A stretch of DNA of 64,000 bases from Bilabrum cf. latius (Eukaryota). The stretch covers positions 1,054,001 to 1,118,000 of the forward strand of contig OZ237735.1 in assembly GCA_965178125.1 (NCBI GenBank). Reading direction: 5' to 3'. Shown in pieces: positions 42,001 through 63,998 of the stretch (within the stretch, counting starts at the first letter, position 1; each line of letters opens with the position of its first letter). The translations under genes and the position numbers were made by a program. The notes under the pieces were generated by a model, which was given only the letters and a program-made list of their open reading frames with translations, was not told the origin of the DNA and did no database searches.

Positions 42001-45000
42001 CCAGACACCGCGTTCGTCGATGCGCCCGACGCCACGCTCACCGCGCCCGATGACGCTGATGCCGCATCGCCAGACCGCACAGTCACCGCGCCCGTCACAT
42101 CCTTGTCAGACACGCCCGACAGCACGCTCATGCCGCCAGATGCAGCCGACACCGCCGCGCCCGAGCCCACAGTCACCACGCCAGACACCGCGTTCGTCGA
42201 TGCGCCCGACGCCACGCTCACCGCGCCCGATGACGCTGATGCCGCATCGCCAGACCGCACAGTCACCGCGCCCGTCACATCCACGTCGGACGTGCCAGAG
42301 CCCACAGTCACCGCGCCCGACGAGTCAAGCGACGAAGACCCAGACAGCACGCTCACGCCGCCAGATGCAGCCGACACCGCCGCGCCCGAGCCCACAGTCA
42401 CCACGCCAGACACCGCGTTCGTCGATGCGCCCGACGCCACGCTCACCGCGCCCGATGACGCGGATGCCGCATCGCCAGACCGCACAGTCACCGCGCCCGT
42501 CACATCCACGTCGGACGTGCCAGAGCCCACAGTCACCACGCCCGACGAGTCAAGCGACGAAGACCCAGACAGCACGCTCACGCCGCCAGATGCAGCCGAC
42601 ACCGCCGCGCCCGATCCCACAGTCACCACGCCAGACACCGCGTTCGTCGACGCGCCCGACAGCACGCTCACCGCGCCCGATGACGCGGATGCCGCATCGC
42701 CAGACCGCAAAGTCACCGCGCCCGTCACATCCACGTCGGACGTGCCAGAGCCCACAGTCACCACGCCAGACGAGTCAAGCGACGAAGACCCAGACAGCAC
42801 GCTCACGCCGCCAGATGCAGCCGATACCGCCGCGCCCGAGCCCACAGTCACCACGCCAGACACCGCGTTCGTCGATGCACCCGACGCCACGCTCACCGCG
42901 CCCGATGACGCGGATGCCGCATCGCCAGACCGCACAGTCACCGCGCCCGTCACATCCTTGTCAGACATGCCCGACAGCACGCTCACGCCGCCAGATGCAG
43001 CCGACACCGCCGCGCCCGAGCCCACAGTCACCACGCCAGACACCGCGTTCGTCGATGCGCCCGACGCCACGCTCACCGCGCCCGATGACGCTGATGCCGC
43101 ATCGCCAGACCGCACAGTCACCGCGCCCGTCACATCCACGTCGGACGTGCCAGAGCCCACAGTCACCGCGCCCGACGAGTCAAGCGACGAAGACCCAGAC
43201 AGCACGCTCACGCCGCCAGATGCAGCCGACACCGCCGCGCCCGATCCCACAGTCACCACGCCAGACACCGCGTTCGTCGATGCGCCCGACGCCACGCTCA
43301 CCGCGCCCGATGACGCGGATGCCGCATCGCCAGACCGCACAGTCACCGCGCCCGTCACATCCACGTCGGACGTGCCAGAGCCCACAGTCACCGCGCCCGA
43401 CGAGTCAAGCGACGAAGACCCAGACAGCACGCTCACGCCGCCAGATGCAGCCGACACCGCCGCGCCCGATCCCACAGTCACCACGCCAGACACCGCGTTC
43501 GTCGATGCGCCCGACGCCACGCTCACCGCGCCCGATGACGCGGATGCCGCATCGCCAGACCGCACAGTCACCGCGCCCGTCACATCCACGTCGGACGTGC
43601 CAGAGCCCACAGTCACCGCGCCCGACGAGTCAAGCGACGAAGACCCAGACAGCACGCTCACGCCGCCAGATGCAGCCGACACCGCCGCGCCCGAGCCCAC
43701 AGTCACCACGCCAGACACCGCGTTCGTCGATGCGCCCGACGCCACGCTCACCGCGCCCGATGACGCTGATGCCGCATCGCCAGACCGCACAGTCACCGCG
43801 CCCGTCACATCCACGTCGGACGTGCCAGAGCCCACAGTCACCGCGCCCGACGAGTCAAGCGACGAAGACCCAGACAGCACGCTCACGCCGCCAGATGCAG
43901 CCGACACCGCCGCGCCCGAGCCCACAGTCACCACGCCAGACACCGCGTTCGTCGATGCGCCCGACGCCACGCTCACCGCGCCCGATGACGCGGATGCCGC
44001 ATCGCCAGACCGCACAGTCACCGTGCCCGTCACATCCTTGTCAGACACGCCCGACAGCACGCTCACGCCGCCAGATGCAGCCGACACCGCCGCGCCCGAT
44101 CCCACAGTCACCACGCCAGACACCGCGTTCGTCGATGCGCCCGACGCCACGCTCACCGCGCCCGATGACGCGGATGCCGCATCGCCAGACCGCACAGTCA
44201 CCGCGCCCGTCACATCCACGTCGGACGTGCCAGAGCCCACAGTCACCGCGCCCGACGAGTCAAGCGACGAAGACCCAGACAGCACGCTCACGCCGCCAGA
44301 TGCAGCCGACACCGCCGCGCCCGATCCCACAGTCACCACGCCAGACACCGCGTTCGTCGATGCGCCCGACGCCACGCTCACCGCGCCCGATGACGCTGAT
44401 GCCGCATCGCCAGACCGCACAGTCACCGCGCCCGTCACATCCTTGTCAGACACGCCCGACAGCACGCTCACGCCGCCAGATGCAGCCGACACCGCCGCGC
44501 CCGATCCCACAGTCACCACGCCAGACACCGCGTTCGTCGATGCGCCCGACGCCACGCTCACCGCGCCCGATGACGCGGATGCCGCATCGCCAGACCGCAC
44601 AGTCACCGCGCCCGTCACATCCACGTCGGACGTGCCAGAGCCCACAGTCACCGCGCCCGACGAGTCAAGCGACGAAGACCCAGACAGCACGCTCACGCCG
44701 CCAGATGCAGCCGACACCGCCGCGCCCGATCCCACAGTCACCACGCCAGACACCGCGTTCGTCGATGCGCCCGACGCCACGCTCACCGCGCCCGATGACG
44801 CTGATGCCGCATCGCCAGACCGCACAGTCACCGCGCCCGTCACATCCACGTCGGACGTGCCAGAGCCCACAGTCACCGCGCCCGACGAGTCAAGCGACGA
44901 AGACCCAGACAGCACGCTCACGCCGCCAGATGCAGCCGACACCGCCGCGCCCGAGCCCACAGTCACCACGCCAGACACCGCGTTCGTCGATGCGCCCGAC

Positions 45001-48000
45001 GCCACGCTCACCGCGCCCGATGACGCGGATGCCGCATCGCCAGACCGCACAGTCACCGTGCCCGTCACATCCTTGTCAGACACGCCCGACAGCACGCTCA
45101 CGCCGCCAGATGCAGCCGACACCGCCGCGCCCGATCCCACAGTCACCACGCCAGACACCGCGTTCGTCGATGCGCCCGACGCCACGCTCACCGCGCCCGA
45201 TGACGCGGATGCCGCATCGCCAGACCGCACAGTCACCGCGCCCGTCACATCCACGTCGGACGTGCCAGAGCCCACAGTCACCGCGCCCGACGAGTCAAGC
45301 GACGAAGACCCAGACAGCACGCTCACGCCGCCAGATGCAGCCGACACCGCCGCGCCCGATCCCACAGTCACCACGCCAGACACCGCGTTCGTCGATGCGC
45401 CCGACGCCACGCTCACCGCGCCCGATGACGCTGATGCCGCATCGCCAGACCGCACAGTCACCGTGCCCGTCACATCCTTGTCAGACACGCCCGACAGCAC
45501 GCTCATGCCGCCAGATGCAGCCGACACCGCCGCGCCCGAGCCCACAGTCACCACGCCAGACACCGCGTTCGTCGACGCGCCCGACGCCACGCTCACCGCG
45601 CCCGATGACGCTGATGCCGCATCGCCAGACCGCACAGTCACCGCGCCCGTCACATCCACGTCGGACGTGCCAGAGCCCACAGTCACCGCGCCCGACGAGT
45701 CAAGCGACGAAGACCCAGACAGCACGCTCACGCCGCCAGATGCAGCCGACACCGCCGCGCCCGATCCCACAGTCACCATGCCAGACACCGCGTTCGTCGA
45801 CGCGCCCGACGCCACGCTCACCGCGCCCGATGACGCGGATGCCGCATCGCCAGACCGCACAGTCACCGCGCCCGTCACATCCACGTCGGACGTGCCAGAG
45901 CCCACAGTCACCGCGCCCGACGAGTCAAGCGACGAAGACCCAGACAGCACGCTCACGCCGCCAGATGCAGCCGACACCGCCGCGCCCGATCCCACAGTCA
46001 CCACGCCAGACACCGCGTTCGTCGATGCGCCCGACGCCACGCTCACCGCGCCCGATGACGCGGATGCCGCATCGCCAGACCGCACAGTCACCGCGCCCGT
46101 CACATCCACGTCGGACGTGCCAGAGCCCACAGTCACCGCGCCCGACGAGTCAAGCGACGAAGACCCAGACAGCACGCTCACGCCGCCAGATGCAGCCGAC
46201 ACCGCCGCGCCCGAGCCCACAGTCACCACGCCAGACACCGCGTTCGTCGATGCGCCCGACGCCACGCTCACCGCGCCCGATGACGCGGATGCCGCATCGC
46301 CAGACCGCACAGTCACCGCGCCCGTCACATCCTTGTCAGACACGCCCGACAGCACGCTCACGCCGCCAGATGCAGCCGACACCGCCGCGCCCGAGCCCAC
46401 AGTCACCACGCCAGACACCGCGTTCGTCGATGCGCCCGACGCCACGCTCACCGCGCCCGATGACGCAGATGCCGCATCGCCAGACCGCACAGTCACCGCG
46501 CCCGTCACATCCACGTCGGACGTGCCAGAGCCCACAGTCACCGCGCCCGACGAGTCAAGCGACGAAGACCCAGACAGCAAGCTCACGCCGCCAGATGCAG
46601 CCGACACCGCCGCGCCCGATCCCACAGTCACCATGCCAGACACCGCGTTCGTCGATGCGCCCGACGCCACGCTCACCGCGCCCGATGACGCGGATGCCGC
46701 ATCGCCAGACCGCACAGTCACCGCACCCGTCACATCCACGTCGGACGTGCCAGAGCCCACAGTCACCGCGCCCGACGAGTCAAGCGACGAAGACCCAGAC
46801 AGCACGCTCACGCCGCCAGATGCAGCCGACACCGCCGCGCCCGATCCCACAGTCACCACGCCAGACACCGCGTTCGTCGACGCGCCCGACGCCACGCTCA
46901 CCGCGCCCGATGACGCGGATGCCGCATCGCCAGACCGCACAGTCACCGCACCCGTCACATCCACGTTGGACGTGCCAGAGCCCACAGTCACCACGCCCGA
47001 CGAGTCAAGCGACGAAGACCCAGACAGCACGCTCACGCCGCCAGATGCAGCCGACACCGCCGCGCCCGATCCCACAGTCACCACGCCAGACACCGCGTTC
47101 GTCGATGCGCCCGACGCCACGCTCACCGCGCCCGATGACGCGGATGCCGCATCGCCAGACCGCACAGTCACCGCGCCCGTCACATCCTTGTCAGACACGC
47201 CCGACAGCACGCTCACGCCGCCAGATGCAGCCGACACCGCCGCGCCCGATCCCACAGTCACCATGCCAGACACCGCGTTCGTCGATGCGCCCGACGCCAC
47301 GCTCACCGCGCCCGATGACGCGGATGCCGCATCGCCAGACCGCACAGTCACCGCGCCCGTCACATCCACGTCGGACGTGCCAGAGCCCACAGTCACCGCG
47401 CCCGACGAGTCAAGCGACGAAGACCCAGACAGCACGCTCACGCCGCCAGATGCAGCCGACACCGCCGCGCCCGATCCCACAGTCACCACGCCAGACACCG
47501 CGTTCGTCGATGCGCCCGACGCCACGCTCACCGCGCCCGATGACGCGGATGCCGCATCGCCAGACCGCACAGTCACCGCGCCCGTCACATCCACGTCGGA
47601 CGTGCCAGAGCCCACAGTCACCGCGCCCGACGAGTCAAGCGACGAAGACCCAGACAGCACGCTCACGCCGCCAGATGCAGCCGACACCGCCGCGCCCGAT
47701 CCCACAGTCACCACGCCAGACACCGCGTTCGTCGACGCGCCCGACGCCACGCTCACCGCGCCCGATGACGCGGATGCCGCATCGCCAGACCGCACAGTCA
47801 CCGCGCCCGTCACATCCTTGTCAGACACGCCCGACAGCACGCTCACGCCGCCAGATGCAGCCGACACCGCCGCGCCCGATCCCACAGTCACCATGCCAGA
47901 CACCGCGTTCGTCGATGCGCCCGACGCCACGCTCACCGCGCCCGATGACGCGGATGCCGCATCGCCAGACCGCACAGTCACCGCGCCCGTCACATCCACG

Positions 48001-51000
48001 TCGGACGTGCCAGAGCCCACAGTCACCGCGCCCGACGAGTCAAGCGACGAAGACCCAGACAGCACGCTCACGCCGCCAGATGCAGCCGACACCGCCGCGC
48101 CCGAGCCCACAGTCACCACGCCAGACACCGCGTTCGTCGATGCGCCCGACGCCACGCTCACCGCGCCCGATGACGCTGATGCCGCATCGCCAGACCGCAC
48201 AGTCACCGCGCCCGTCACATCCACGTCGGACGTGCCAGAGCCCACAGTCACCGCGCCCGACGAGTCAAGCGACGAAGACCCAGACAGCACGCTCACGCCG
48301 CCAGATGCAGCCGACACCGCCGCGCCCGATCCCACAGTCACCACGCCAGACACCGCGTTCGTCGATGCGCCCGACGCCACGCTCACCGCGCCCGATGACG
48401 CGGATGCCGCATCGCCAGACCGCACAGTCACCGCGCCCGTCACATCCACGTCGGACGTGCCAGAGCCCACAGTCACCGCGCCCGACGAGTCAAGCGACGA
48501 AGACCCAGACAGCACGCTCACGCCGCCAGATGCAGCCGACACCGCCGCGCCCGAGCCCACAGTCACCATGCCAGACACCGCGTTCGTCGATGCGCCCGAC
48601 GCCACGCTCACCGCGCCCGATGACGCGGATGCCGCATCGCCAGACCGCACAGTCACCGCGCCCGTCACATCCACGTCGGACGTACCAGAGCCCACAGTCA
48701 CCGCGCCCGACGAGTCAAGCGACGAAGACCCAGACAGCACGCTCACGCCGCCAGATGCAGCCGACACCGCCGCGCCCGATCCCACAGTCACCACGCCAGA
48801 CACCGCGTTCGTCGATGCGCCCGACGCCACGCTCACCGCGCCCGATGACGCGGATGCCGCATCGCCAGACCGCACAGTCACCGTGCCAGTCACATCCACG
48901 TCGGACGTGCCAGAGCCCACAGTCACCGCGCCCGACGAGTCAAGCGACGAAGACCCAGACAGCACGCTCACGCCGCCAGATGCAGCCGACACCGCCGCGC
49001 CCGAGCCCACAGTCACCACGCCAGACACCGCGTTCGTCGATGCGCCCGACGCCACGCTCACCGCGCCCGATGACGCTGATGCCGCGTCGCCAGACCGCAC
49101 AGTCACCGCGCCCGTCACATCCACGTCGGACGTGCCAGAGCCCACAGTCACCGCGCCCGACGAGTCAAGCGACGAAGACCCAGACAGCACGCTCACGCCG
49201 CCAGATGCAGCCGACACCGCCGCGCCCGAGCCCACAGTCACCACGCCAGACACCGCGTTCGTCGATGCGCCCGACGCCACGCTCACCGCGCCCGATGACG
49301 CGGATGCCGCATCGCCAGACCGCACAGTCACCGCACCCGTCACATCCACGTCGGACGTGCCAGAGCCCACAGTCACCGCGCCCGACGAGTCAAGCGACGA
49401 AGACCCAGACAGCACGCTCACGCCGCCAGATGCAGCCGACACCGCCGCGCCCGATCCCACAGTCACCACGCCAGACACCGCGTTCGTCGATGCGCCCGAC
49501 GCCACGCTCACCGCGCCCGATGACGCTGATGCCGCGTCGCCAGACCGCACAGTCACCGCGCCCGTCACATCCACGTCGGACGTGCCAGAGCCCACAGTCA
49601 CCACGCCCGACGAGTCAAGCGACGAAGACCCAGACAGCACGCTCACGCCGCCAGATGCAGCCGACACCGCCGCGCCCGAGCCCACAGTCACCACGCCAGA
49701 CACCGCGTTCGTCGATGCGCCCGACGCCACGCTCACCGCGCCCGATGACGCGGATGCCGCATCGCCAGACCGCACAGTCACCGTGCCCGTCACATCCTTG
49801 TCAGACACGCCCGACAGCACGCTCACGCCGCCAGATGCAGCCGACACCGCCGCGCCCGAGCCCACAGTCACCACGCCAGACACCGCGTTCGTCGATGCGC
49901 CCGACGCCACGCTCACCGCGCCCGATGACGCGGATGCCGCATCGCCAGACCGCACAGTCACCGCGCCCGTCACATCCTTGTCAGACACGCCCGACAGCAC
50001 GCTCACGCCGCCAGATGCAGCCGACACCGCCGCGCCCGAGCCCACAGTCACCACGCCAGACACCGCGTTCGTCGATGCGCCCGACGCCACGCTCACCGCG
50101 CCCGATGACGCTGATGCCGCATCGCCAGACCGCACAGTCACCGCGCCCGTCACATCCACGTCGGACGTACCAGAGCCCACAGTCACCGCGCCCGACGAGT
50201 CAAGCGACGAAGGCCCAGACAGCACGCTCACGCCGCCAGATGCAGCCGACACCGCCGCGCCCGAGCCCACAGTCACCACGCCAGACACCGCGTTCGTCGA
50301 TGCGCCCGACAGCACGCTCACCGCGCCCGATGACGCTGATGCCGCATCGCCAGACCGCACAGTCACCGCGCCCGTCACATCCTTGTCAGACACGCCCGAC
50401 AGCACGCTCACGCCGCCAGATGCAGCTGACACCGCCGCGCCCGATCCCACAGTCACCACGCCAGACACCGCGTTCGTCGATGCGCCCGACGCCACGCTCA
50501 CCGCGCCCGATGACGCGGATGCCGCATCGCCAGACCGCACAGTCACCGCGCCCGTCACATCCACGTCGGACGTGCCAGAGCCCACAGTCACCGCGCCCGA
50601 CGAGTCAAGCGACGAAGACCCAGACAGCACGCTCACGCCGCCAGATGCAGCCGACACCGCCGCGCCCGATCCCACAGTCACCACGCCAGACACCGCGTTC
50701 GTCGATGCGCCCGATGCCACGCTCACCGCGCCCGATGACGCAGATGCCGCATCGCCAGACCGCACAGTCACCGCGCCCGTCACATCCACGTCGGACGTGC
50801 CAGAGCCCACAGTCACCGCGCCCGACGAGTCAAGCGACGAAGACCCAGACAGCACGCTCACGCCGCCAGATGCAGCCGACACTGCCGCGCCCGATCCCAC
50901 AGTCACCACGCCAGACACCGCGTTCGTCGATGCGCCCGACGCCACGCTCACCGCGCCCGATGACGCTGATGCCGCATCGCCAGACCGCACAGTCACCGCG

Positions 51001-54000
51001 CCCGTCACATCCACGTCGGACGTGCCAGAGCCCACAGTCACCGCGCCCGACGAGTCAAGCGACGAAGACCCAGACAGCACGCTCACGCCGCCAGATGCAG
51101 CCGACACCGCCGCGCCCGAGCCCACAGTCACCACGCCAGACACCGCGTTCGTCGATGCGCCCGACGCCACGCTCACCGCGCCCGATGACGCTGATGCCGC
51201 ATCGCCAGACCGCACAGTCACCGCGCCCGTCACATCCTTGTCAGACACGCCCGACAGCACGCTCACGCCGCCAGATGCAGCCGACACCGCCGCGCCCGAG
51301 CCCACAGTCACCACGCCAGACACCGCGTTCGTCGATGCGCCCGACGCCACGCTCACCGCGCCCGATGACGCGGATGCCGCATCGCCAGACCGCACAGTCA
51401 CCGCGCCCGTCACATCCACGTCGGACGTGCCAGAGCCCACAGTCACCGCGCCCGACGAGTCAAGCGACGAAGACCCAGACAGCACGCTCACGCCGCCAGA
51501 TGCAGCCGACACCGCCGCGCCCGAGCCCACAGTCACCACGCCAGACACCGCGTTCGTCGATGCGCCCGACGCCACGCTCACCGCGCCCGATGACGCTGAT
51601 GCCGCATCGCCAGACCGCACAGTCACCGCGCCCGTCACATCCACGTCGGACGTACCAGAGCCCACAGTCACCGCGCCCGACGAGTCAAGCGACGAAGACC
51701 CAGACAGCACGCTCACGCCGCCAGATGCAGCCGACACCGCCGCGCCCGAGCCCACAGTCACCACGCCAGACACCGCGTTCGTCGATGCGCCCGACGCCAC
51801 GCTCACCGCGCCCGATGACGCGGATGCCGCATCGCCAGACCGCACAGTCACCGTGCCCGTCACATCCTTGTCAGACACGCCCGACAGCACGCTCACGCCG
51901 CCAGATGCAGCCGACACCGCCGCGCCCGAGCCCACAGTCACCACGCCAGACACCGCGTTCGTCGATGCGCCCGACGCCACGCTCACCGCGCCCGATGACG
52001 CTGATGCCGCATCGCCAGACCGCACAGTCACCGCGCCCGTCACATCCTTGTCAGACACGCCCGACAGCACGCTCACGCCGCCAGATGCAGCCGACACCGC
52101 CGCGCCCGATCCCACAGTCACCATGCCAGACACCGCGTTCGTCGATGCGCCCGACGCCACGCTCACCGCGCCCGATGACGCGGATACCGCATCGCCAGAC
52201 CGCACAGTCACCGCGCCCGTCACATCCACGTCGGACGTGCCAGAGCCCACAGTCACCGCGCCCGACGAGTCAAGCGACGAAGACCCAGACAGCACGCTCA
52301 CGCCGCCAGATGCAGCCGACACCGCCGCGCCCGAGCCCACAGTCACCACGCCAGACACCGCGTTCGTCGATGCGCCCGACGCCACGCTCACCGCGCCCGA
52401 TGACGCTGATGCCGCATCGCCAGACCGCACAGTCACCGCGCCCGTCACATCCTTGTCAGACACGCCCGACAGCACGCTCACGCCGCCAGATGCAGCCGAC
52501 ACCGCCGCGCCCGATCCCACAGTCACCACGCCAGACACCGCGTTCGTCGATGCGCCCGACGCCACGCTCACCGCGCCCGATGACGCAGATGCCGCATCGC
52601 CAGACCGCACAGTCACCGTGCCCGTCACATCCACGTCGGACGTGCCAGAGCCCACAGTCACCGCGCCCGACGAGTCAAGCGACGAAGACCCAGACAGCAC
52701 GCTCACGCCGCCAGATGCAGCCGACACCGCCGCGCCCGATCCCACAGTCACCACGCCAGACACCGCGTTCGTCGATGCGCCCGACGCCACGCTCACCGCG
52801 CCCGATGTCGCGGATGCCGCATCGCCAGACCGCACAGTCACCGCGCCCGTCACATCCTTGTCAGACACGCCCGACAGCACGCTCACGCCGCCAGATGCAG
52901 CCGACACCGCCGCGCCCGAGCCCACAGTCACCACGCCAGACACCGCGTTCGTCGATGCGCCCGACGCCACGCTCACCGCGCCCGATGACGCTGATGCCGC
53001 ATCGCCAGACCGCACAGTCACCGCGCCCGTCACATCCACGTCGGACGTGCCAGAGCCCACAGTCACCGCGCCCGACGAGTCAAGCGACGAAGACCCAGAC
53101 AGCACGCTCACGCCGCCAGATGCAGCCGACACCGCCGCGCCCGAGCCCACAGTCACCACGCCAGACACCGCGTTCGTCGACGCGCCCGACGCCACGCTCA
53201 CCGCGCCCGATGACGCTGATGCCGCATCGCCAGACCGCACAGTCACCGCGCCCGTCACATCCTTGTCAGACACGCCCGACAGCACGCTCACGCCGCCAGA
53301 TGCAGCTGACACCGCCGCGCCCGATCCCACAGTCACCACGCCAGACACCGCGTTCGTCGATGCGCCCGACGACACGCTCACCGCGCCCGATGACGCTGAT
53401 GCCGCATCGCCAGACCGCACAGTCACCGCGCCCGTCACATCCTTGTCAGACACGCCCGACAGCACGCTCACGCCGCCAGATGCAGCCGACACCGCCGCGC
53501 CCGATCCCACAGTCACCATGCCAGACACCGCGTTCGTCGATGCGCCCGACGCCACGCTCACCGCGCCCGATGACGCGGATGCCGCATCGCCAGACCGCAC
53601 AGTCACCGCGCCCGTCACATCCTTGTCAGACACGCCCGACAGCACGCTCACGCCGCCAGATGCAGCCGACACCGCCGTGCCCGATCCCACAGTCACCACG
53701 CCAGACACCGCGTTCGTCGATGCGCCCGACGACACGCTCACCGCGCCCGATGACGCGGATGCCGCATCGCCAGACCGCACAGTCACCGCGCCAGTCACAT
53801 CCTTGTCAGACACGCCCGACAGCACGCTCACGCCGCCAGATGCAGCCGACACCGCCGCGCCCGATCCCACAGTCACCACGCCAGACACCGCGTTCGTCGA
53901 CGCGCCCGACGACACGCTCACCGCGCCCGATGACGCGGATGCCGCATCACCAGACCGCACAGTCACCGCGCCCGTCACATCCACGTCGGACGTGCCAGAG

Positions 54001-54936
54001 CCCACAGTCACCGCGCCCGACGAGTCAAGCGACGAAGACCCAGACAGCACGCTCACGCCGCCAGATGCAGCCGACACCGCCGCGCCCGATCCCACAGTCA
54101 CCACGCCAGACACCGCGTTCGTCGACGCGCCCGACGCCACGCTCACCGCGCCCGATGACGCTGATGCCGCATCGCCAGACCGCACAGTCACCGCGCCCGT
54201 CACATCCACGTCGGACGTGCCAGAGCCCACAGTCACCGTGCCCGACGAGTCAAGCGACGAAGACCCAGACAGCACGCTCACGCCGCCAGATGCAGCCGAC
54301 ACCGCCGCGCCCGAGCCCACAGTCACCACGCCAGACACCGCGTTCGTCGATGCGCCCGACGCCACGCTCACCGCGCCCGATGACGCGGATGCCGCATCGC
54401 CAGACCGCACAGTCACCGCGCCCGTCACATCCTTGTCAGACACGCCCGACAGCACGCTCACGCCGCCAGATGCAGCCGACACCGCCGCGCCCGATCCCAC
54501 AGTCACCACGCCAGACACCGCGTTCGTCGATGCGCCCGACGCCACGCTCACCGCGCCCGATGACGCGGATGCCGCATCGCCAGACCGCACAGTCACCGCG
54601 CCCGTCACATCCACGTCGGACGTGCCAGAGCCCACAGTCACCGCGCCCGACGAGTCAAGCGACGAAGACCCAGACAGCACGCTCACGCCGCCAGATGCAG
54701 CCGACACCGCCGCGCCCGATCCCACAGTCACCACGCCAGACACCGCGTTCGTCGATGCGCCCGACGCCACGCTCACCGCGCCCGATGACGCGGATGCCGC
54801 ATCGCCAGACCGCACAGTCACCGCGCCCGTCACATCCTTGTCAGACACGCCCGACAGCACGCTCACGCCGCCAGATGCAGCCGACACCGCCGCGCCCGAT
54901 CCCACAGTCACCACGCCAGACACCGCATTCGTCGAT
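1..54936 (-). repeat. Coding tandem array A: interspersed 180-bp (60 aa) and 225-bp (75 aa) units made of 45-bp subunits, roughly 270 units
   Basis: Short unit, minus strand: SGVVTVGSGAAVSAA-SGGVSVLSGVSDKDV-TG[A/T]VTVRSGDAASAS-SGAVSVASGASTNAV. The long unit replaces the second coil with SGGVSVLSGSSSLDS-SGAVTVGSGTSDVDV. Copies are near-identical. The array ends at ...gcattcgtcgat (54936). Unit count is estimated from length. Confidence 0.97.
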
Positions 54937-57900
54937 ATTCCGGAGAGCAGTTGCACGTCTCCAGATCTTCCGGAACCGCTATTGCCGCTGGCGATTTCAA
55001 CTGCACCTGAGAAACCATTTGTTGAGTCACCGGATAATACTTGAAGCTACCCTGACGACCCGCTTGGTCCGGTTCCTGCAGAACTTCTCAATAGAATGGT
55101 GCCTGATGTCTATCCTGTAGCAGCCTCTCCTGATTCAATCACGATGTTTCCTCCATTGTGCAACGTGGAAGATGACATGCCTGCGTTAATTTGGATATTG
55201 CCACCGTTCTAGTTCTCAGCAGATCCTGCTGAGACACTTATTGCTCCAACCGTACCTCTTGTTGTTGATCCTGATGATAAAAGCAACCAACCCGACTGTC
55301 CGGACGTCGAGGAGCCGGTTTGCAAAATGGCATTACCAGAAGAGGCAATTCCACTAGCAGATGCTAGATTGAGAACACCAGATGCTCCATCATTGTTCTG
55401 GCTAGCACCGGTAATAAGTGAGATTGAACCTCCAGTGTTAGGTGCATCGCCCGCCAAAACTTGAACTCCGCCTCCCGACCCGATAGATGTTGACCCAACA
55501 ACAAGACTTATGTCGCCCGCTTGCCCACCTGTAGCAGCCCCAGTTGCCAGGACCGCATCACCAGATGAACCACCTGTTGCAGCACCAGTTCCGGCGAAAA
55601 GCTATCCCGACGATGCAGAAACAGCAGTAGATACAGAAACGTCTCCGGACTGATCGGTTGGTGAAGCTGTCTCCCCTGATACAATTCGAACATCACCGCC
55701 GTCAAGGGCGGATCCCGATGCTATTCCAGATGCCTAGATGTGTACATCTCCTGGCGAGCCGGCCGCAACTCCAGCAACAATACTGATTGACCCAGCGATT
55801 GCAGAGCTCGACCCCGACTGCACTATCACATCACCAGAATTCCCCTCAGCATTACCGCTTCCTACTGTAATAACGCCGGAATCCCCCGAGCTTAGCGGAT
55901 CAGCACTCAAAACACTCACAGCGCCGGAAGTCTATCCAGAACCACTAGACACAATGACATCACCACCAGCACTACCACCATCTGAAGCGTCTCCAGCAAG
56001 AACGTAGGCAAGGCCACCGGACCCACTAGACGAGGACCCGACAGCAATACTAATACTACCAGCAACGCCTCTATCGGCAGAACCAGTATCGAGAACCAGC
56101 CAACCAGAATTACCCGACTATGCGTCCCCAGAAAAAACATTAACAGCGCCAGACTATCCCGCAGCAGCAACCCCACTACTAAATGAAACAGCACCAGACA
56201 CACCTGAAACAACAGCACCAGAAGCAACAGACACCGTTCCAGATGCTCCACCCTGTCCAGACCCAGCCGCGCTGCCCACGCTCACAGACCCGCTCGTCTG
56301 CCCGTCCGCCGCGCCCCCAGACTGCACGCGCACCAGCCCGCCCGTGCCGCTCGTACCAGAGCTGGACCCGGCCAGCACGTACACGGACCCGCCAGCCTCA
56401 GACACGCCGCTCGTCTGCGATGCCTGCACAGACACCGACCCACTAGCACCCAGCGTGGACTCCCCAGTGCGCAGCACAAGCCAGCCAGCGTCGCCCGACG
56501 ATGCGTCGCCAGTCTCAACCACCACGTTCCCGCTGCTGCCGCGCAGAGCTCCGCCGCTCGACACGCTCACAGACCCAGACGCATCGCCAGACGATGTGCC
56601 GGATCCCACGCTCACAGACCCAGACACGTCAAGCAACGAGTCGCCCGATCCCACGCTCACAGACCCAGACGCCGCTGACACCGCAGATCCAGATGTCACG
56701 CTCACAGACCCAGACACATCTCGAGTCGCATCGCCGGATGCTACCGTCACACTCCCAGATGCTGCCGACAACGCAGATCCAGATGTCACGCTCACAGCGC
56801 CCGACACCGAGTTCGTCGCAAACCCAGATCCCACGCTCACGCTGCCCGATGAGCCAGACCCAGCGTTCCCGCTCGACACAGACACCACGCCAGTAAAGCC
56901 GCCCGTGGACACACCACTCGACACATCCACGGCCCCAGACGAACCGTCCGATCCAGACCCAGCCGCGCTGCCCACGCTCACAGACCCGCTCGTCTGCCCG
57001 TCCGCCGCGCCCCCAGACTGCACGCGCACCAGCCCGCCCGTGCCGCTCGTACCAGAGCTGGACCCGGCCAGCACGTACACGGACCCGCCAGCCTCAGACA
57101 CGCCGCTCGTCTGCGATGCCTGCACAGACACCGACCCACTAGCACCCAGCGTGGACTCCCCAGTGCGCAGCACAAGCCAGCCAGCGTCGCCCGACGATGC
57201 GTCGCCAGTCTCAACCACCACGTTCCCGCTGCTGCCGCGCAGAGCTCCGCCGCTCGACACGCTCACAGACCCAGACGCATCGCCAGACGATGTGCCGGAT
57301 CCCACGCTCACAGACCCAGACACGTCAAGCAACGAGTCGCCCGATCCCACGCTCACAGACCCAGACGCCGCTGACACCGCAGATCCAGATGTCACGCTCA
57401 CAGCGCCCGACACCGAGTTCGTCGCAAACCCAGATCCCACGCTCACGCTGCCCGATGAGCCAGACCCAGCGTTCCCGCTCGACACAGACACCACGCCAGT
57501 GAAGCCGCCCGTGGACACACCACTCGACACATCCACGGCCCCAGACGAACCGTCCGATCCAGACCCAGCCGCGCTGCCCACGCTCACAGACCCGCTCGTC
57601 TGCCCGTCCGCCGCGCCCCCAGACTGCACGCGCACCAGCCCGCCCGTGCCGCTCGTACCAGAGCTGGACCCGGCCAGCACGTACACGGACCCGCCAGCCT
57701 CAGACACGCCGCTCGTCTGCGATGCCTGCACAGACACCGACCCACTAGCACCCAGCGTGGACTCCCCAGTGCGCAACACAAGCCAGCCAGCGTCGCCCGA
57801 CGATGCGTCGCCAGTCTCAACCACCACGTTCCCGCTGCTGCCGCGCAGAGCTCCGCCGCTCGACACGCTCACAGACCCAGACGCATCGCCAGACGATGTG

Positions 57901-60900
57901 CCGGATCCCACGCTCACAGACCCAGACACGTCAAGCAACGAGTCGCCCGATCCCACGCTCACAGACCCAGACGCCGCTGACACCGCAGATCCAGATGTCA
58001 CGCTCACAGACCCAGACACATCTCGAGTCGCATCGCCGGATGCTACCGTCACACTCCCAGATGCTGCTGACACCGCAGATCCAGATGTCACGCTCACAGC
58101 GCCCGACACCGAGTTCGTCGCAAACCCAGATCCCACGCTCACGCTGCCCGATGAGCCAGACCCAGCGTTCCCGCTCGACACAGACACCACGCCAGTGAAG
58201 CCGCCCGTGGACACACCACTCGACACATCCACGGCCCCAGACGAACCGTCCGATCCAGACCCAGCCGCGCTGCCCACGCTCACAGACCCGCTCGTCTGCC
58301 CGTCCGCCGCGCCCCCAGACTGCACGCGCACCAGCCCGCCCGTGCCGCTCGTACCAGAGCTGGACCCGGCCAGCACGTACACGGACCCGCCAGCCTCAGA
58401 CACGCCGCTCGTCTGCGATGCCTGCACAGACACCGACCCACTAGCACCCAGCGTGGACTCCCCAGTGCGCAGCACAAGCCAGCCAGCGTCGCCCGACGAT
58501 GCGTCGCCAGTCTCAACCACCACGTTCCCGCTGCTGCCGCGCAGAGCTCCGCCGCTCGACACGCTCACAGACCCAGACGCATCGCCAGACGATGTGCCGG
58601 ATCCCACGCTCACAGACCCAGACACGTCAAGCAACGAGTCGCCCGATCCCACGCTCACAGACCCAGACGCCGCTGACACCGCAGATCCAGATGTCACGCT
58701 CACAGACCCAGACACATCTCGAGTCGCATCACCGGATGCTACCGTCACACTCCCAGATGCTGCCGACAACGCAGATCCAGATGTCACGCTCACAGCGCCC
58801 GACACCGAGTTCGTCGCAAACCCAGATCCCACGCTCACGCTGCCCGATGAGCCAGACCCAGCGTTCCCGCTCGACACAGACACCACGCCAGTAAAGCCGC
58901 CCGTGGACACACCACTCGACACATCCACGGCCCCAGACGAACCGTCCGATCCAGACCCAGCCGCGCTGCCCACGCTCACAGACCCGCTCGTCTGCCCGTC
59001 CGCCGCGCCCCCAGACTGCACGCGCACCAGCCCGCCCGTGCCGCTCGTACCAGAGCTGGACCCGGCCAGCACGTACACGGACCCGCCAGCCTCAGACACG
59101 CCGCTCGTCTGCGATGCCTGCACAGACACCGACCCACTAGCACCCAGCGTGGACTCCCCAGTGCGCAGCACAAGCCAGCCAGCGTCGCCCGACGATGCGT
59201 CGCCAGTCTCAACCACCACGTTCCCGCTGCTGCCGCGCAGAGCTCCGCCGCTCGACACGCTCACAGACCCAGACGCATCGCCAGACGATGTGCCGGATCC
59301 CACGCTCACAGACCCAGACACGTCAAGCAACGAGTCGCCCGATCCCACGCTCACAGACCCAGACGCCGCTGACACCGCAGATCCAGATGTCACGCTCACA
59401 GACCCAGACACATCTCGAGTCGCATCGCCGGATGCTACCGTCACACTCCCAGATGCTGCCGACAACGCAGATCCAGATGTCACGCTCACAGCGCCCGACA
59501 CCGAGTTCGTCGCAAACCCAGATCCCACGCTCACGCTGCCCGATGAGCCAGACCCAGCGTTCCCGCTCGACACAGACACCACGCCAGTGAAGCCGCCCGT
59601 GGACACACCACTCGACACATCCACGGCCCCAGACGAACCGTCCGATCCAGACCCAGCCGCGCTGCCCACGCTCACAGACCCGCTCGTCTGCCCGTCCGCC
59701 GCGCCCCCAGACTGCACGCGCACCAGCCCGCCCGTGCCGCTCGTACCAGAGCTGGACCCGGCCAGCACGTACACGGACCCGCCAGCCTCAGACACGCCGC
59801 TCGTCTGCGATGCCTGCACAGACACCGACCCACTAGCACCCAGCGTGGACTCCCCAGTGCGCAGCACAAGCCAGCCAGCGTCGCCCGACGATGCGTCGCC
59901 AGTCTCAACCACCACGTTCCCGCTGCTGCCGCGCAGAGCTCCGCCGCTCGACACGCTCACAGACCCAGACGCATCGCCAGACGATGTGCCGGATCCCACG
60001 CTCACAGACCCAGACACGTCAAGCAACGAGTCGCCCGATCCCACGCTCACAGACCCAGACGCCGCTGACACCGCAGATCCAGATGTCACGCTCACAGACC
60101 CAGACACATCTCGAGTCGCATCGCCGGATGCTACCGTCACACTCCCAGATGCTGCCGACAACGCAGATCCAGATGTCACGCTCACAGCGCCCGACACCGA
60201 GTTCGTCGCAAACCCAGATCCCACGCTCACGCTGCCCGATGAGCCAGACCCAGCGTTCCCGCTCGACACAGACACCACGCCAGTGAAGCCGCCCGTGGAC
60301 ACACCACTCGACACATCCACGGCCCCAGACGAACCGTCCGATCCAGACCCAGCCGCGCTGCCCACGCTCACAGACCCGCTCGTCTGCCCGTCCGCCGCGC
60401 CCCCAGACTGCACGCGCACCAGCCCGCCCGTGCCGCTCGTACCAGAGCTGGACCCGGCCAGCACGTACACGGACCCGCCAGCCTCAGACACGCCGCTCGT
60501 CTGCGATGCCTGCACAGACACCGACCCACTAGCACCCAGCGTGGACTCCCCAGTGCGCAGCACAAGCCAGCCAGCGTCGCCCGACGATGCGTCGCCAGTC
60601 TCAACCACCACGTTCCCGCTGCTGCCGCGCAGAGCTCCGCCGCTCGACACGCTCACAGACCCAGACGCATCGCCAGACGATGTGCCGGATCCCACGCTCA
60701 CAGACCCAGACACGTCAAGCAACGAGTCGCCCGATCCCACGCTCACAGACCCAGACGCCGCTGATACCGCAGATCCAGATGTCACGCTCACAGCGCCCGA
60801 CACCGAGTTCGTCGCAAACCCAGATCCCACGCTCACGCTGCCCGATGAGCCAGACCCAGCGTTCCCGCTCGACACAGACACCACGCCAGTGAAGCCGCCC

Positions 60901-63900
60901 GTGGACACACCACTCGACACATCCACGGCCCCAGACGAACCGTCCGATCCAGACCCAGCCGCGCTGCCCACGCTCACAGACCCGCTCGTCTGCCCGTCCG
61001 CCGCGCCCCCAGACTGCACGCGCACCAGCCCGCCCGTGCCGCTCGTACCAGAGCTGGACCCGGCCAGCACGTACACGGACCCGCCAGCCTCAGACACGCC
61101 GCTCGTCTGCGATGCCTGCACAGACACCGACCCACTAGCACCCAGCGTGGACTCCCCAGTGCGCAGCACAAGCCAGCCAGCGTCGCCCGACGATGCGTCG
61201 CCAGTCTCAACCACCACGTTCCCGCTGCTGCCGCGCAGAGCTCCGCCGCTCGACACGCTCACAGACCCAGACGCATCGCCAGACGATGTGCCGGATCCCA
61301 CGCTCACAGACCCAGACACGTCAAGCAACGAGTCGCCCGATCCCACGCTCACAGACCCAGACGCCGCTGATACCGCAGATCCAGATGTCACGCTCACAGC
61401 GCCCGACACCGAGTTCGTCGCAAACCCAGATCCCACGCTCACGCTGCCCGATGAGCCAGACCCAGCGTTCCCGCTCGACACAGACACCACGCCAGTGAAG
61501 CCGCCCGTGGACACACCACTCGACACATCCACGGCCCCAGACGAACCGTCCGATCCAGACCCAGCCGCGCTGCCCACGCTCACAGACCCGCTCGTCTGCC
61601 CGTCCGCCGCGCCCCCAGACTGCACGCGCACCAGCCCGCCCGTGCCGCTCGTACCAGAGCTGGACCCGGCCAGCACGTACACGGACCCGCCAGCCTCAGA
61701 CACGCCGCTCGTCTGCGATGCCTGCACAGACACCGACCCACTAGCACCCAGCGTGGACTCCCCAGTGCGCAGCACAAGCCAGCCAGCGTCGCCCGACGAT
61801 GCGTCGCCAGTCTCAACCACCACGTTCCCGCTGCTGCCGCGCAGAGCTCCGCCGCTCGACACGCTCACAGACCCAGACGCATCGCCAGACGATGTGCCGG
61901 ATCCCACGCTCACAGACCCAGACACGTCAAGCAACGAGTCGCCCGATCCCACGCTCACAGACCCAGACGCCGCTGACACCGCAGATCCAGATGTCACGCT
62001 CACAGACCCAGACACATCTCGAGTCGCATCACCGGATGCTACCGTCACACTCCCAGATGCTGCTGACACCGCAGATCCAGATGTCACGCTCACAGCGCCC
62101 GACACCGAGTTCGTCGCAAACCCAGATCCCACGCTCACGCTGCCCGATGAGCCAGACCCAGCGTTCCCGCTCGACACAGACACCACGCCAGTGAAGCCGC
62201 CCGTGGACACACCACTCGACACATCCACGGCCCCAGACGAACCGTCCGATCCAGACCCAGCCGCGCTGCCCACGCTCACAGACCCGCTCGTCTGCCCGTC
62301 CGCCGCGCCCCCAGACTGCACGCGCACCAGCCCGCCCGTGCCGCTCGTACCAGAGCTGGACCCGGCCAGCACGTACACGGACCCGCCAGCCTCAGACACG
62401 CCGCTCGTCTGCGATGCCTGCACAGACACCGACCCACTAGCACCCAGCGTGGACTCCCCAGTGCGCAGCACAAGCCAGCCAGCGTCGCCCGACGATGCGT
62501 CGCCAGTCTCAACCACCACGTTCCCGCTGCTGCCGCGCAGAGCTCCGCCGCTCGACACGCTCACAGACCCAGACGCATCGCCAGACGATGTGCCGGATCC
62601 CACGCTCACAGACCCAGACACGTCAAGCAACGAGTCGCCCGATCCCACGCTCACAGACCCAGACGCCGCTGACACCGCAGATCCAGATGTCACGCTCACA
62701 GACCCAGACACATCTCGAGTCGCATCGCCGGATGCTACCGTCACACTCCCAGATGCTGCCGACAACGCAGATCCAGATGTCACGCTCACAGCGCCCGACA
62801 CCGAGTTCGTCGCAAACCCAGATCCCACGCTCACGCTGCCCGATGAGCCAGACCCAGCGTTCCCGCTCGACACAGACACCACGCCAGTGAAGCCGCCCGT
62901 GGACACACCACTCGACACATCCACGGCCCCAGACGAACCGTCCGATCCAGACCCAGCCGCGCTGCCCACGCTCACAGACCCGCTCGTCTGCCCGTCCGCC
63001 GCGCCCCCAGACTGCACGCGCACCAGCCCGCCCGTGCCGCTCGTACCAGAGCTGGACCCGGCCAGCACGTACACGGACCCGCCAGCCTCAGACACGCCGC
63101 TCGTCTGCGATGCCTGCACAGACACCGACCCACTAGCACCCAGCGTGGACTCCCCAGTGCGCAGCACAAGCCAGCCAGCGTCGCCCGACGATGCGTCGCC
63201 AGTCTCAACCACCACGTTCCCGCTGCTGCCGCGCAGAGCTCCGCCGCTCGACACGCTCACAGACCCAGACGCATCGCCAGACGATGTGCCGGATCCCACG
63301 CTCACAGACCCAGACACGTCAAGCAACGAGTCGCCCGATCCCACGCTCACAGACCCAGATGCCGCTGATACCGCAGATCCAGATGTCACGCTCACAGCGC
63401 CCGACACCGAGTTCGTCGCAAACCCAGATCCCACGCTCACGCTGCCCGATGAGCCAGACCCAGCGTTCCCGCTCGACACAGACACCACGCCAGTGAAGCC
63501 GCCCGTGGACACACCACTCGACACATCCACGGCCCCAGACGAACCGTCCGATCCAGACCCAGCCGCGCTGCCCACGCTCACAGACCCGCTCGTCTGCCCG
63601 TCCGCCGCGCCCCCAGACTGCACGCGCACCAGCCCGCCCGTGCCGCTCGTACCAGAGCTGGACCCGGCCAGCACGTACACGGACCCGCCAGCCTCAGACA
63701 CGCCGCTCGTCTGCGATGCCTGCACAGACACCGACCCACTAGCACCCAGCGTGGACTCCCCAGTGCGCAGCACAAGCCAGCCAGCGTCGCCCGACGATGC
63801 GTCGCCAGTCTCAACCACCACGTTCCCGCTGCTGCCACGCAGAGCTCCGCCGCTCGACACGCTCACAGACCCAGACGCATCGCCAGACGATGTGCCGGAT

Positions 63901-63998
63901 CCCACGCTCACAGACCCAGACACGTCAAGCAACGAGTCGCCCGATCCCACGCTCACAGACCCAGACGCCGCTGATACCGCAGATCCAGATGTCACGCT
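3..63998 (-). CDS. Internal fragment (5' and 3' partial) of a giant Gly/Ser/Val/Ala-rich repeat protein, predicted beta-solenoid fibre, at least ~21,330 aa; requires TAG to be read as sense (likely Gln)
   Basis: Track ORFs 56154..63995, 55734..55919 and 55209..55457 share one minus frame. Manual translation of the gaps keeps the SGxVxVxSG motif through 8 TAG codons. The frame then enters array A (...SGRSGDVQLLSGISTNAVSGVVTVGSGAAVSAASGGVSVLSG...) and, in the unit consensus and all variants I checked, stays stop-free to position 3. That part is probably missing from the track because it has no stop inside the window. Confidence 0.85.
17250..20726. repeat. Higher-order tandem duplication within array A, period 1755 bp (6x180 + 3x225)
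   Basis: The rare variant gttgat occurs at 17536 and 19291, 1755 bp apart. The order of short/long units and the point variants match between 17250..18971 and 19005..20726. Flanking mismatches are at 17249/19004 and 18972/20727. Confidence 0.8.
54937..56255 (-). other. Non-repetitive coding linker (~440 codons) of diverged solenoid coils joining arrays B and A
   Basis: Translation includes ...GVAAAG*SGAVNVFSGDA*SGNSGWLVLDTGSADRGVAGSISIAVG...DVIVSSGSG*TSGAVSVL...PGDVHI*ASGIASG...SASSG*LFAGTG...SAGSAEN*NGGNIQINAG...IESGEAATG*TSGTILLRSSAGTGPSGSSG*LQVLSGDSTNGFSGAVEIASG. Sampled lines are 43-55% GC, versus 73% in a sampled array A line. Confidence 0.9.
55047..56156 (-). other. Eight in-frame TAG codons, putatively recoded as Gln
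   Basis: Plus-strand cta triplets in the coding frame start at 55047, 55110, 55209, 55602, 55734, 55932, 56118 and 56154. No in-frame TAA or TGA. Confidence 0.9.

Follow-up and report, generated by a model that had tools for sequence, protein, structure and literature searches.

Architecture of the locus

We analyzed a stretch of 64,000 nucleotides from Bilabrum cf. latius (NCBI GenBank assembly GCA_965178125.1, contig OZ237735.1, positions 1,054,001 to 1,118,000 of the forward strand), which is referred to below as the window and is numbered from its first letter. Its minus strand carries one giant reading frame, in which two long repeat arrays are joined by a short non-repeated linker, and this linker contains eight in-frame TAG codons that are probably translated as an amino acid. 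The frame, defined by codon top coordinates p with (64000-p)%3==2, comprised 21,332 codons and eight stops across the 64,000 bases, and was divided into the following elements, listed in the direction of reading after the frame itself.

3..63998, minus strand: reading frame of 21,332 codons that extends past the window at both ends and is unbroken except at eight TAG codons.
56256..63998, minus strand: array B, composed of 202- and 232-residue units (606/696 bp) that are near-identical to each other; GC content at third codon positions (GC3) 0.70.
About 54924-56255, minus strand: non-repeated linker of about 444 codons, carrying all eight TAG codons.
55719..56198, minus strand: L1, first diverged copy of an array-B unit, with 82 of 159 aligned residues the same as in array B; contains the TAG codons with top coordinates 56156, 56120, 55934 and 55736.
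54969..55388, minus strand: L2, second diverged copy of an array-B unit, with 64 of 139 residues identical to array B and 52 of 132 to L1; contains TAG 55211, 55112 and 55049.
3..54923, minus strand: array A, in which 269 anchor motifs delimit 268 full units; GC3 0.76.

The units of array A alternated between lengths of 60 residues (180 bp, 123 units) and 75 residues (225 bp, 145 units), and all 49 glutamine codons of array B were CAG. The bounds of the linker were taken from the array ends that Tandem Repeats Finder gave, from one unique read contig, and from a jump in k-mer depth at position 56256. The linker consisted of L1, L2 and intervening repeats. The identities were 52% for L1 and 46% for L2 against array B, and 39% between L1 and L2, and the alignments stayed in one frame with gaps of codon length only. 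The eight TAG codons occupied 370 linker codons (55047-56156), with a GC3 of 0.36. The translation was rich in Gly, Ser, Ala and Val and built of units of about 15 residues of the type SG-x-V-x-V-x-SG. The best explanation of the window is that it represents part of one giant minus-strand repeat-protein gene. The encoded protein would be fiber-like, rich in the same four residues and built of 15-residue beta-strand repeats, and the gene would consist of two young, homogenized GC-rich arrays flanking an older linker that has not been homogenized. If translated into a single product, the gene, with at least 21,332 codons and both ends open, would rank among the longest known coding sequences; its start, its end and any non-repeat domain all lay outside the view of the window. 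Two possible reasons for the low GC3 of the linker relative to the arrays (0.36 versus 0.70-0.76) are that the arrays have undergone GC-biased gene conversion and that the linker represents the native codon usage. In the read set X1 (described below), the word depth of array B was about 17 times that of the linker (167.6 versus 9.6), yet only about 11-12 units lie within the window, which suggests that array B extends several units past the window end.

The composition of the locus kept several reading frames open. The plus strand contained 44.5% C and 9.6% T, and the GC content was 0.70 at positions 1-54000, 0.60 at 54001-56000, and 0.66-0.67 beyond. Plus frame 0 was also open over 55 kb, with six stops (three TGA and three TAG, all in 55042-56005), and two further frames were open for 16-32 kb. 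Openness of the arrays therefore proves little. Variation among the copies of array A, sorted by codon position of the minus frame, amounted to 9/4/15 and 12/5/26 variable sites, and the ratios of synonymous to non-synonymous alleles were 18:14 and 30:19, the best of the six frames. Hypermutability of CpG as the source of the third-position variation was rejected, because the synonymous excess persisted without CpG transitions (28 of 49 alleles synonymous versus 31-32% expected, P=2e-4). The third-position variation and the synonymous excess, together with the protein relatives described next, point to the minus frame as the coding one. The mirror plus frame in window positions 1-55044, whose third codon positions coincide with those of the coding frame, gave a P/D/T/A-rich translation, which is most likely a by-product of GNN/NCN-rich sense codons.

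Searches with the minus-frame protein yielded 242 matching proteins at E<=1e-3 and 27 at E<=1e-10. The named relatives belonged to the oomycetes Phytophthora fragariae, Aphanomyces euteiches and Lagenidium giganteum, and one record from a metagenome-assembled genome was annotated as a “tail fiber domain-containing protein”. These oomycete and metagenomic proteins are distant, tail-fiber-like relatives rich in G and S, some of them with a Peptidase_S74 domain, exemplified by A. euteiches CAK4417441.1 and the hypothetical proteins DAZ94475.1 of L. giganteum and PF002_g28544 of P. fragariae. They have in common with the window protein the repeat SG-x-[VI]-x-[VI]-x-[ST]G, at 30-39% identity over hundreds of residues and with E values down to 4e-22. 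The Peptidase_S74 chaperone domain (PF13884) was found in four of the eight relatives scanned. A Pfam scan of the linker with its flanks, of 1166 residues of array B and of 1349 residues of array A returned no family and no PF13884, the gene being incomplete in the window; the domain may lie outside it. The window protein thus differs from the oomycete fiber proteins in showing no PF13884 within the 64 kb seen, and also in its far longer and more uniform arrays.

Other searches returned little. The window protein had no match among PDB sequences, and no relatives with DNA context were detected in metagenome contigs, prokaryote genome contigs or IMG/VR viral contigs, or by tblastn in GenBank phages. 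Array B as a query gave distant matches only. A 276-residue predicted protein on a 7.5-kb metagenome contig (P0131) was 61% identical over about 80 residues to an array-A unit, while its remainder resembled out-of-frame GC-rich sequence; it may derive from a related locus of another organism, mis-called across an intron or a frame change. An AlphaFold2 model of two array-B units, run without an alignment, reached a mean predicted local distance difference test score (pLDDT) of 36 and was unusable. The window contained no tRNA genes and no Rfam matches.

The eight in-frame TAG codons

Within the 21,332 codons of the frame, TAG occurred eight times and TAA and TGA not at all, and all eight TAG codons fell within 55047-56156. 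The preliminary description of this DNA had reported eight TAG, no TAA, no TGA and no frameshift in about 440 codons joining the two arrays in the same frame; we measured the joint at 444 codons and recovered the same frame on both sides. Its observation that the solenoid motif is unbroken was borne out as well, since the G/S/A/V-rich 15-residue motif continued through every TAG. The reality of the codons was examined with k-mer contigs assembled from short-read-type runs of four studies (X1, X5, X6 and X7), which were compared with the window. The codons are listed below with their translated context, in which the asterisk marks the TAG, with the paralogous array-B residue where one was aligned, and with the read sets whose contigs show the TAG.

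56154..56156, minus strand: TAG 1, AAAG*SGAV; paralogous residue Ser (AGC); X1, X6.
56118..56120, minus strand: TAG 2, SGDA*SGNSGW; paralogous residue Ser (TCG); X1, X6.
55932..55934, minus strand: TAG 3, SGSG*TSGAV; faces the CAG (Gln) of G-Q-T-S-G, present in 12 of 12 array-B copies; X1, X5, X6, X7.
55734..55736, minus strand: TAG 4, GDVHI*ASG; placed in a gap by the aligner, by eye may match the Gln of SVSVQAS; X1, X5, X6.
55602..55604, minus strand: TAG 5, ASSG*LFAG, between L1 and L2; X1, X5, X6.
55209..55211, minus strand: TAG 6, SAEN*NGGN; paralogous residue Glu (GAG); a database protein (P0008, below) ends just before it; X1, X5.
55110..55112, minus strand: TAG 7, EAATG*TSGTI; faces the same G-Q-T-S-G CAG (Gln) as TAG 3; X1, X5.
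55047..55049, minus strand: TAG 8, GSSG*LQVL; paralogous residue Ala (GCC); covered by X1 only.

The contig of X1, a run that possibly represents the source sample, agreed with the window at all eight TAG codons. The contigs of the three other studies showed no other letters at the TAG codons they covered (five of eight in X5, five of eight in X6, and one of eight in X7) and jointly covered seven of the eight. The sole difference between any read contig and the window was an A>G at 55536 in X6. The preliminary description had named CAG at these sites in the raw reads as a refutation; the contigs showed TAG at every site covered and CAG at none. Reproduction of the TAG codons in the contigs of independent studies indicated that they are not assembly errors. 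The eight TAG codons are real and in frame, they lie in an otherwise coding-like stretch, and TAG is the only stop codon tolerated there. Across the four studies, the runs that carried the linker, with zero or one difference, were filed under four different organism labels; these either all refer to a single species, or the organism accompanies others as a symbiont, parasite or culture companion. Three additional runs (X8-X10, including an algal and a protist metagenome) shared a small fraction of words (0.06) and were uninformative on habitat or relatives.

The stop statistics of the linker were evaluated against a compositional expectation built from its position-specific base frequencies. 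This expectation was 2.9 TAA, 5.2 TGA and 2.2 TAG, compared with zero, zero and eight observed. The Poisson probability of finding no TAA or TGA was 3e-4 (8.1 expected together), and that of finding at least eight TAG was 2e-3. In these 1110 bases, the five remaining frames contained 5-24 stops each, of mixed types. Exclusion of TAA and TGA extended over all 21,332 codons of the frame, as is expected of a UAG-only code. From the sense codons of the linker, 30 one-step paths lead to TAG, 48 to TGA and 23 to TAA, and the probability that eight nonsense mutations would all produce TAG was 6e-5, or 1.4e-4 with transitions weighted threefold. Signatures of repeat-induced point mutation (RIP-like CpA>TpA) or of deamination at methylated CAG/CTG were sought in the linker by observed-to-expected ratios and none was found, the ratios being 1.42 for CAG, 1.91 for CTG, 1.41 for CpA, 0.79 for TpA and 1.03 for TAG in all frames. 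On these values, RIP-like or CHG-methylation deamination was rejected as a source of TAG alone.

The relatives were then aligned with the TAG codons masked as X. A total of 154 relatives matched, in 295 local alignments, of which 286 crossed at least one TAG column and nine crossed all eight. At the TAG columns the relatives showed a residue, and not a gap, in 87-98% of the spanning alignments. L1 and L2 have diverged to 39-52% identity, yet their frame is intact, which indicates long evolution under coding constraint. Taken together, the stop statistics, the confirmation in the read sets and the alignments through the TAG columns support the earlier proposal that TAG is a sense codon within this gene, and translation of TAG as an amino acid within the linker is the best explanation, to which we assign a probability of about 0.65.

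One database protein bears directly on a TAG codon. When the open reading frame at 55212-55601 was used as a query, the only match was P0008, an 82-residue protein encoded on a 1378-base contig of another assembly, which was 93% identical, without gaps, to linker residues 334-415 and ended exactly before TAG 55211. A diverged relative therefore also has a stop codon at this site, which is a weak argument for translation of TAG. The sole database trace of the relative of the linker is thus an 82-residue fragment, as would result from standard-code annotation that breaks genes at TAG.

The amino acid probably encoded by TAG

The clearest indication of the meaning of TAG came from the internal homology of the gene. 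TAG 55934 in L1 and TAG 55112 in L2 occupy one homologous site, at which array B has the CAG of G-Q-T-S-G in 12 of 12 copies. Local alignment again paired ...ESGEAATG*TSGTILL... without gaps with array B ...QSGGAADGQTSGSVSV..., the match on which the preliminary description had relied, and likewise recovered its G*TSG at 55932 as a repeat of the GQTSG motif. Its two remaining parallels fared less well. The resemblance of DVHI*AS to SVSVQAS is possible by eye, but the aligner pairs DVHI*AS with SVTV-AS. The comparison of G*SG at 56154 with GQSG was weak, the paralogous array-B residue there being Ser (AGC).

We also scored the candidate amino acids by a flanking-residue test that was trained on a non-redundant part of the gene. 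Only three residues had log-odds above zero, namely Asn (2.8), Glu (2.2) and Gln (1.3). Ser (-7.0), Gly (-7.0), Leu (-9.1) and Asp (-10.2) scored far below zero, and Arg was clearly negative too. In the family alignment, the columns at the TAG codons were hydrophilic loop positions from which Val, Leu, Ile and Gly were excluded, with Leu scoring -26.0 versus about -22.5. Among the amino acids one step from UAG, glutamine would be the best fit and leucine and serine poor ones, so that, judged from the sequence, TAG most likely encodes glutamine; it possibly encodes glutamate.

The use of the two glutamine codons allowed the type of code to be considered. CAA and CAG occurred four times each in the 370-codon stretch, and the absence of TAA among the eight stops had a probability of about 0.004 if the third-base preference of CAA and CAG applied to TAA and TAG as well. 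The option raised in the preliminary description, that of translation table 6, in which TAA also encodes glutamine, fitted less well than a UAG-only code: TAA was absent despite the equal use of CAA and CAG, and a UAG-only change is therefore likelier than UAR=Gln. TAA was not used in frame at all, which, coming from one gene, rejects UAR=Gln weakly. A UAG-only code like that of NCBI table 15, Iotanema spirale, Hartmannula and Trochilia is accordingly more likely here than table 6. Under such a code, the translation apparatus of the organism would read the TAG codons of the linker as glutamine, or possibly glutamate, and TAA and TGA would stay forbidden in frame. By analogy with known variant codes, this would involve a tRNA with the anticodon CUA (by precedent a tRNA-Gln), an eRF1 that no longer terminates at UAG, and a change that is genome-wide.

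Several points weigh against this interpretation. All of the evidence comes from one gene, with no second gene and no tRNA in the window, and the true terminator of the gene lies beyond the window, so that the use of TAG at gene ends is not visible. The evidence is moreover confined to 370 codons with a GC3 of 0.36, as opposed to 0.70-0.76 in the rest of the gene, and the 20,962 codons of arrays A and B contain no TAG. The end of P0008 fits an inherited nonsense mutation equally well, its DNA and the type of its stop not having been seen. The antisense frame that shares third positions with the minus frame nearly equals its selection signal (15:16 and 28:20), so that the assignment of the strand relies on the protein homologues. 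As to the amino acid, one homologous site only, with two TAG codons, is clearly a glutamine position, the other alignable TAG codons facing Ser, Ser, Glu and Ala. In addition, the family columns at the TAG codons are variable loop positions at which Asn, Glu, Ala, Arg, Pro, Gln, Asp and Ser are inseparable. The assignment to glutamine made in the preliminary description is hence supported in part, by the two TAG codons at the CAG site and possibly by the one at 55736, the family columns being uninformative.

Alternative explanations and known variant codes

A recently inactivated gene would also contain in-frame stops, and the TAG codons might be true stops, whether of a pseudogene or of a decayed spacer that separates two genes, with array B ending at 56154 and array A starting further on. 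We consider this unlikely. It is in keeping with the location of all eight stops in the sole part of the gene that has not been homogenized by repeats, and with P0008 stopping where TAG 55211 sits, as an inherited nonsense mutation would have it; array A lacks a convincing start near the joint, but a GTG-started open reading frame is listed from 54956. A decaying gene would be expected to show mixed stop types, frameshifts and a loss of codon-position structure. The stops were instead eight of eight TAG (P about 6e-5 to 1.4e-4 from the linker codons), and no mutational signature specific to TAG was seen in the observed-to-expected ratios. As 101 of the 3258 possible single changes are nonsense, eight hits imply about 250 substitutions in the 1110 bases, but the frame, the motif and the codon-position composition were intact. 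Moreover, no N-terminus of a second gene interrupts the solenoid motif where it crosses the joint. An improbable alternative is that the TAG codons never reach the ribosome, the linker being spliced out as an intron or “intronized” exon, or UAG being edited in the RNA. A frame-preserving GT...AG interval over all eight codons can be drawn, the last TAG ending in AG and an in-frame GTN lying just upstream of the first, and the base composition of the linker differs from that of its flanks. In an intron, however, 370 codons would not stay clear of TAA and TGA and retain a coding-like composition and a protein repeat, and no contig joining across the linker was found in any of the four runs, none of them an established RNA data set (for X6 and X7 an RNA origin is a guess). 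Editing of UAG yields CAG by a U-to-C change and UGG by an A-to-I change, the latter as in fungal sexual-stage editing, and UAG is the stop codon that becomes sense through a single A-to-I edit; but tryptophan would be ill-suited to hydrophilic loop positions with paralogous Gln, Ser, Glu and Ala.

It is quite improbable that decoding is partial or context-dependent, with TAG a stop elsewhere and read through here by a karyorelict- or Blastocrithidia-like ambiguous code or by a strong suppressor tRNA. This explanation draws on the same evidence as reassignment, for the window cannot show TAG at gene ends, and ambiguous stop/sense codes do exist, as described in a preprint (bioRxiv 10.1101/2022.04.12.488043). 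Eight successive inefficient read-through events would nevertheless leave almost no full-length product, and the bases after the TAG codons (T, T, A, G, C, A, A and C) form no common read-through context. A satellite-like repeat that is not a gene, with frames open owing to a T/A-poor strand and TAG codons devoid of meaning, is very unlikely. The 9.6% T of the plus strand, the plus frame open for 55 kb with six stops, the two other frames open for 16-32 kb, and the lack of a Pfam family would be consistent with it. Against it stand the synonymous excess among the repeat copies and the 242 proteins at E<=1e-3 (27 at E<=1e-10), which include annotated oomycete proteins, and also the mixed stops of the plus frame (three TGA and three TAG) versus the eight stops of the minus frame, all TAG. 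The word depth of array B, about 17 times that of the linker, fits a single-copy locus and not a genome-wide satellite. A sequencing or assembly artifact, such as systematic miscalling of CAG as TAG in long reads, is extremely unlikely. Resolution of 55 kb of near-identical repeats implies that the window derives from long-read assembly, but short-read-type contigs from four studies reproduced the linker letter for letter.

Translation of TAG as a sense codon, the reading preferred here, has precedents of several kinds. Reassignment of UAG alone to glutamine is described for Iotanema spirale (Fornicata; PMC5304391) and for the phyllopharyngean ciliates Hartmannula sinica and Trochilia petrani (PMC11687900). 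The window gene resembles these organisms in using TAG in frame but neither TAA nor TGA, with glutamine as the best meaning. It differs in the extent of the record, which covers hundreds of genes in those organisms, some with suppressor tRNAs, and one gene with no tRNA in the window here. A gene of more than 64 kb with arrays of 70% GC is also unlike the gene-sized chromosomes of ciliates. The UAR=Gln code of table 6, used by many ciliates, hexamitin diplomonads, some ulvophytes and aphelids, has TAG=Gln in common with the window gene, but no TAA was present in the latter, in which TAA seems not to be a glutamine codon. Codes with UAG=Leu are described for other phyllopharyngeans (the TARA lineage) and for the rhizarian exLh (PMC11687900); they are UAG-only, like the window gene, whereas the TAG codons of the window lie at hydrophilic loop sites at which leucine scores poorly. 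In phages, code 15 with TAG=Gln is described for crAss-like and Lak phages (PMC9523058). It is found there typically in late structural genes such as those of tail fibers, and one relative of the window protein is annotated as “tail fiber domain-containing”. Unlike such phage genes, the window gene had no relative in IMG/VR or among GenBank phages and exceeds 64 kb, and its nearest named relatives are those of oomycetes. The oomycete fiber proteins themselves are read with the standard code, in which they differ from the window gene as interpreted here.

The finding probably represents a further case of the already known UAG-only type of code, in a lineage that has possibly been described already. 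A more specific proposal, which we regard as tentative and rather doubtful, is that the source is a eukaryote outside the ciliates, fornicates and exLh, maybe related to stramenopiles, in which UAG alone was independently reassigned to glutamine and is used in a gene that exceeds 21,000 codons. A link to stramenopiles is suggested because the nearest named protein relatives are oomycete proteins. The accessible portions of the literature on UAG-to-Gln nuclear codes and on stop reassignment in stramenopiles report no reassignment of UAG in stramenopiles. Changes of nuclear codes are rare, and few known lineages treat UAG differently from UAA, as far as these are covered by PMC5304391 and PMC11687900. 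If the reassignment is true, this organism would provide a further independent case for the co-evolution of tRNA(CUA) and eRF1, and any annotation of its genome with the standard code would break its genes at TAG.

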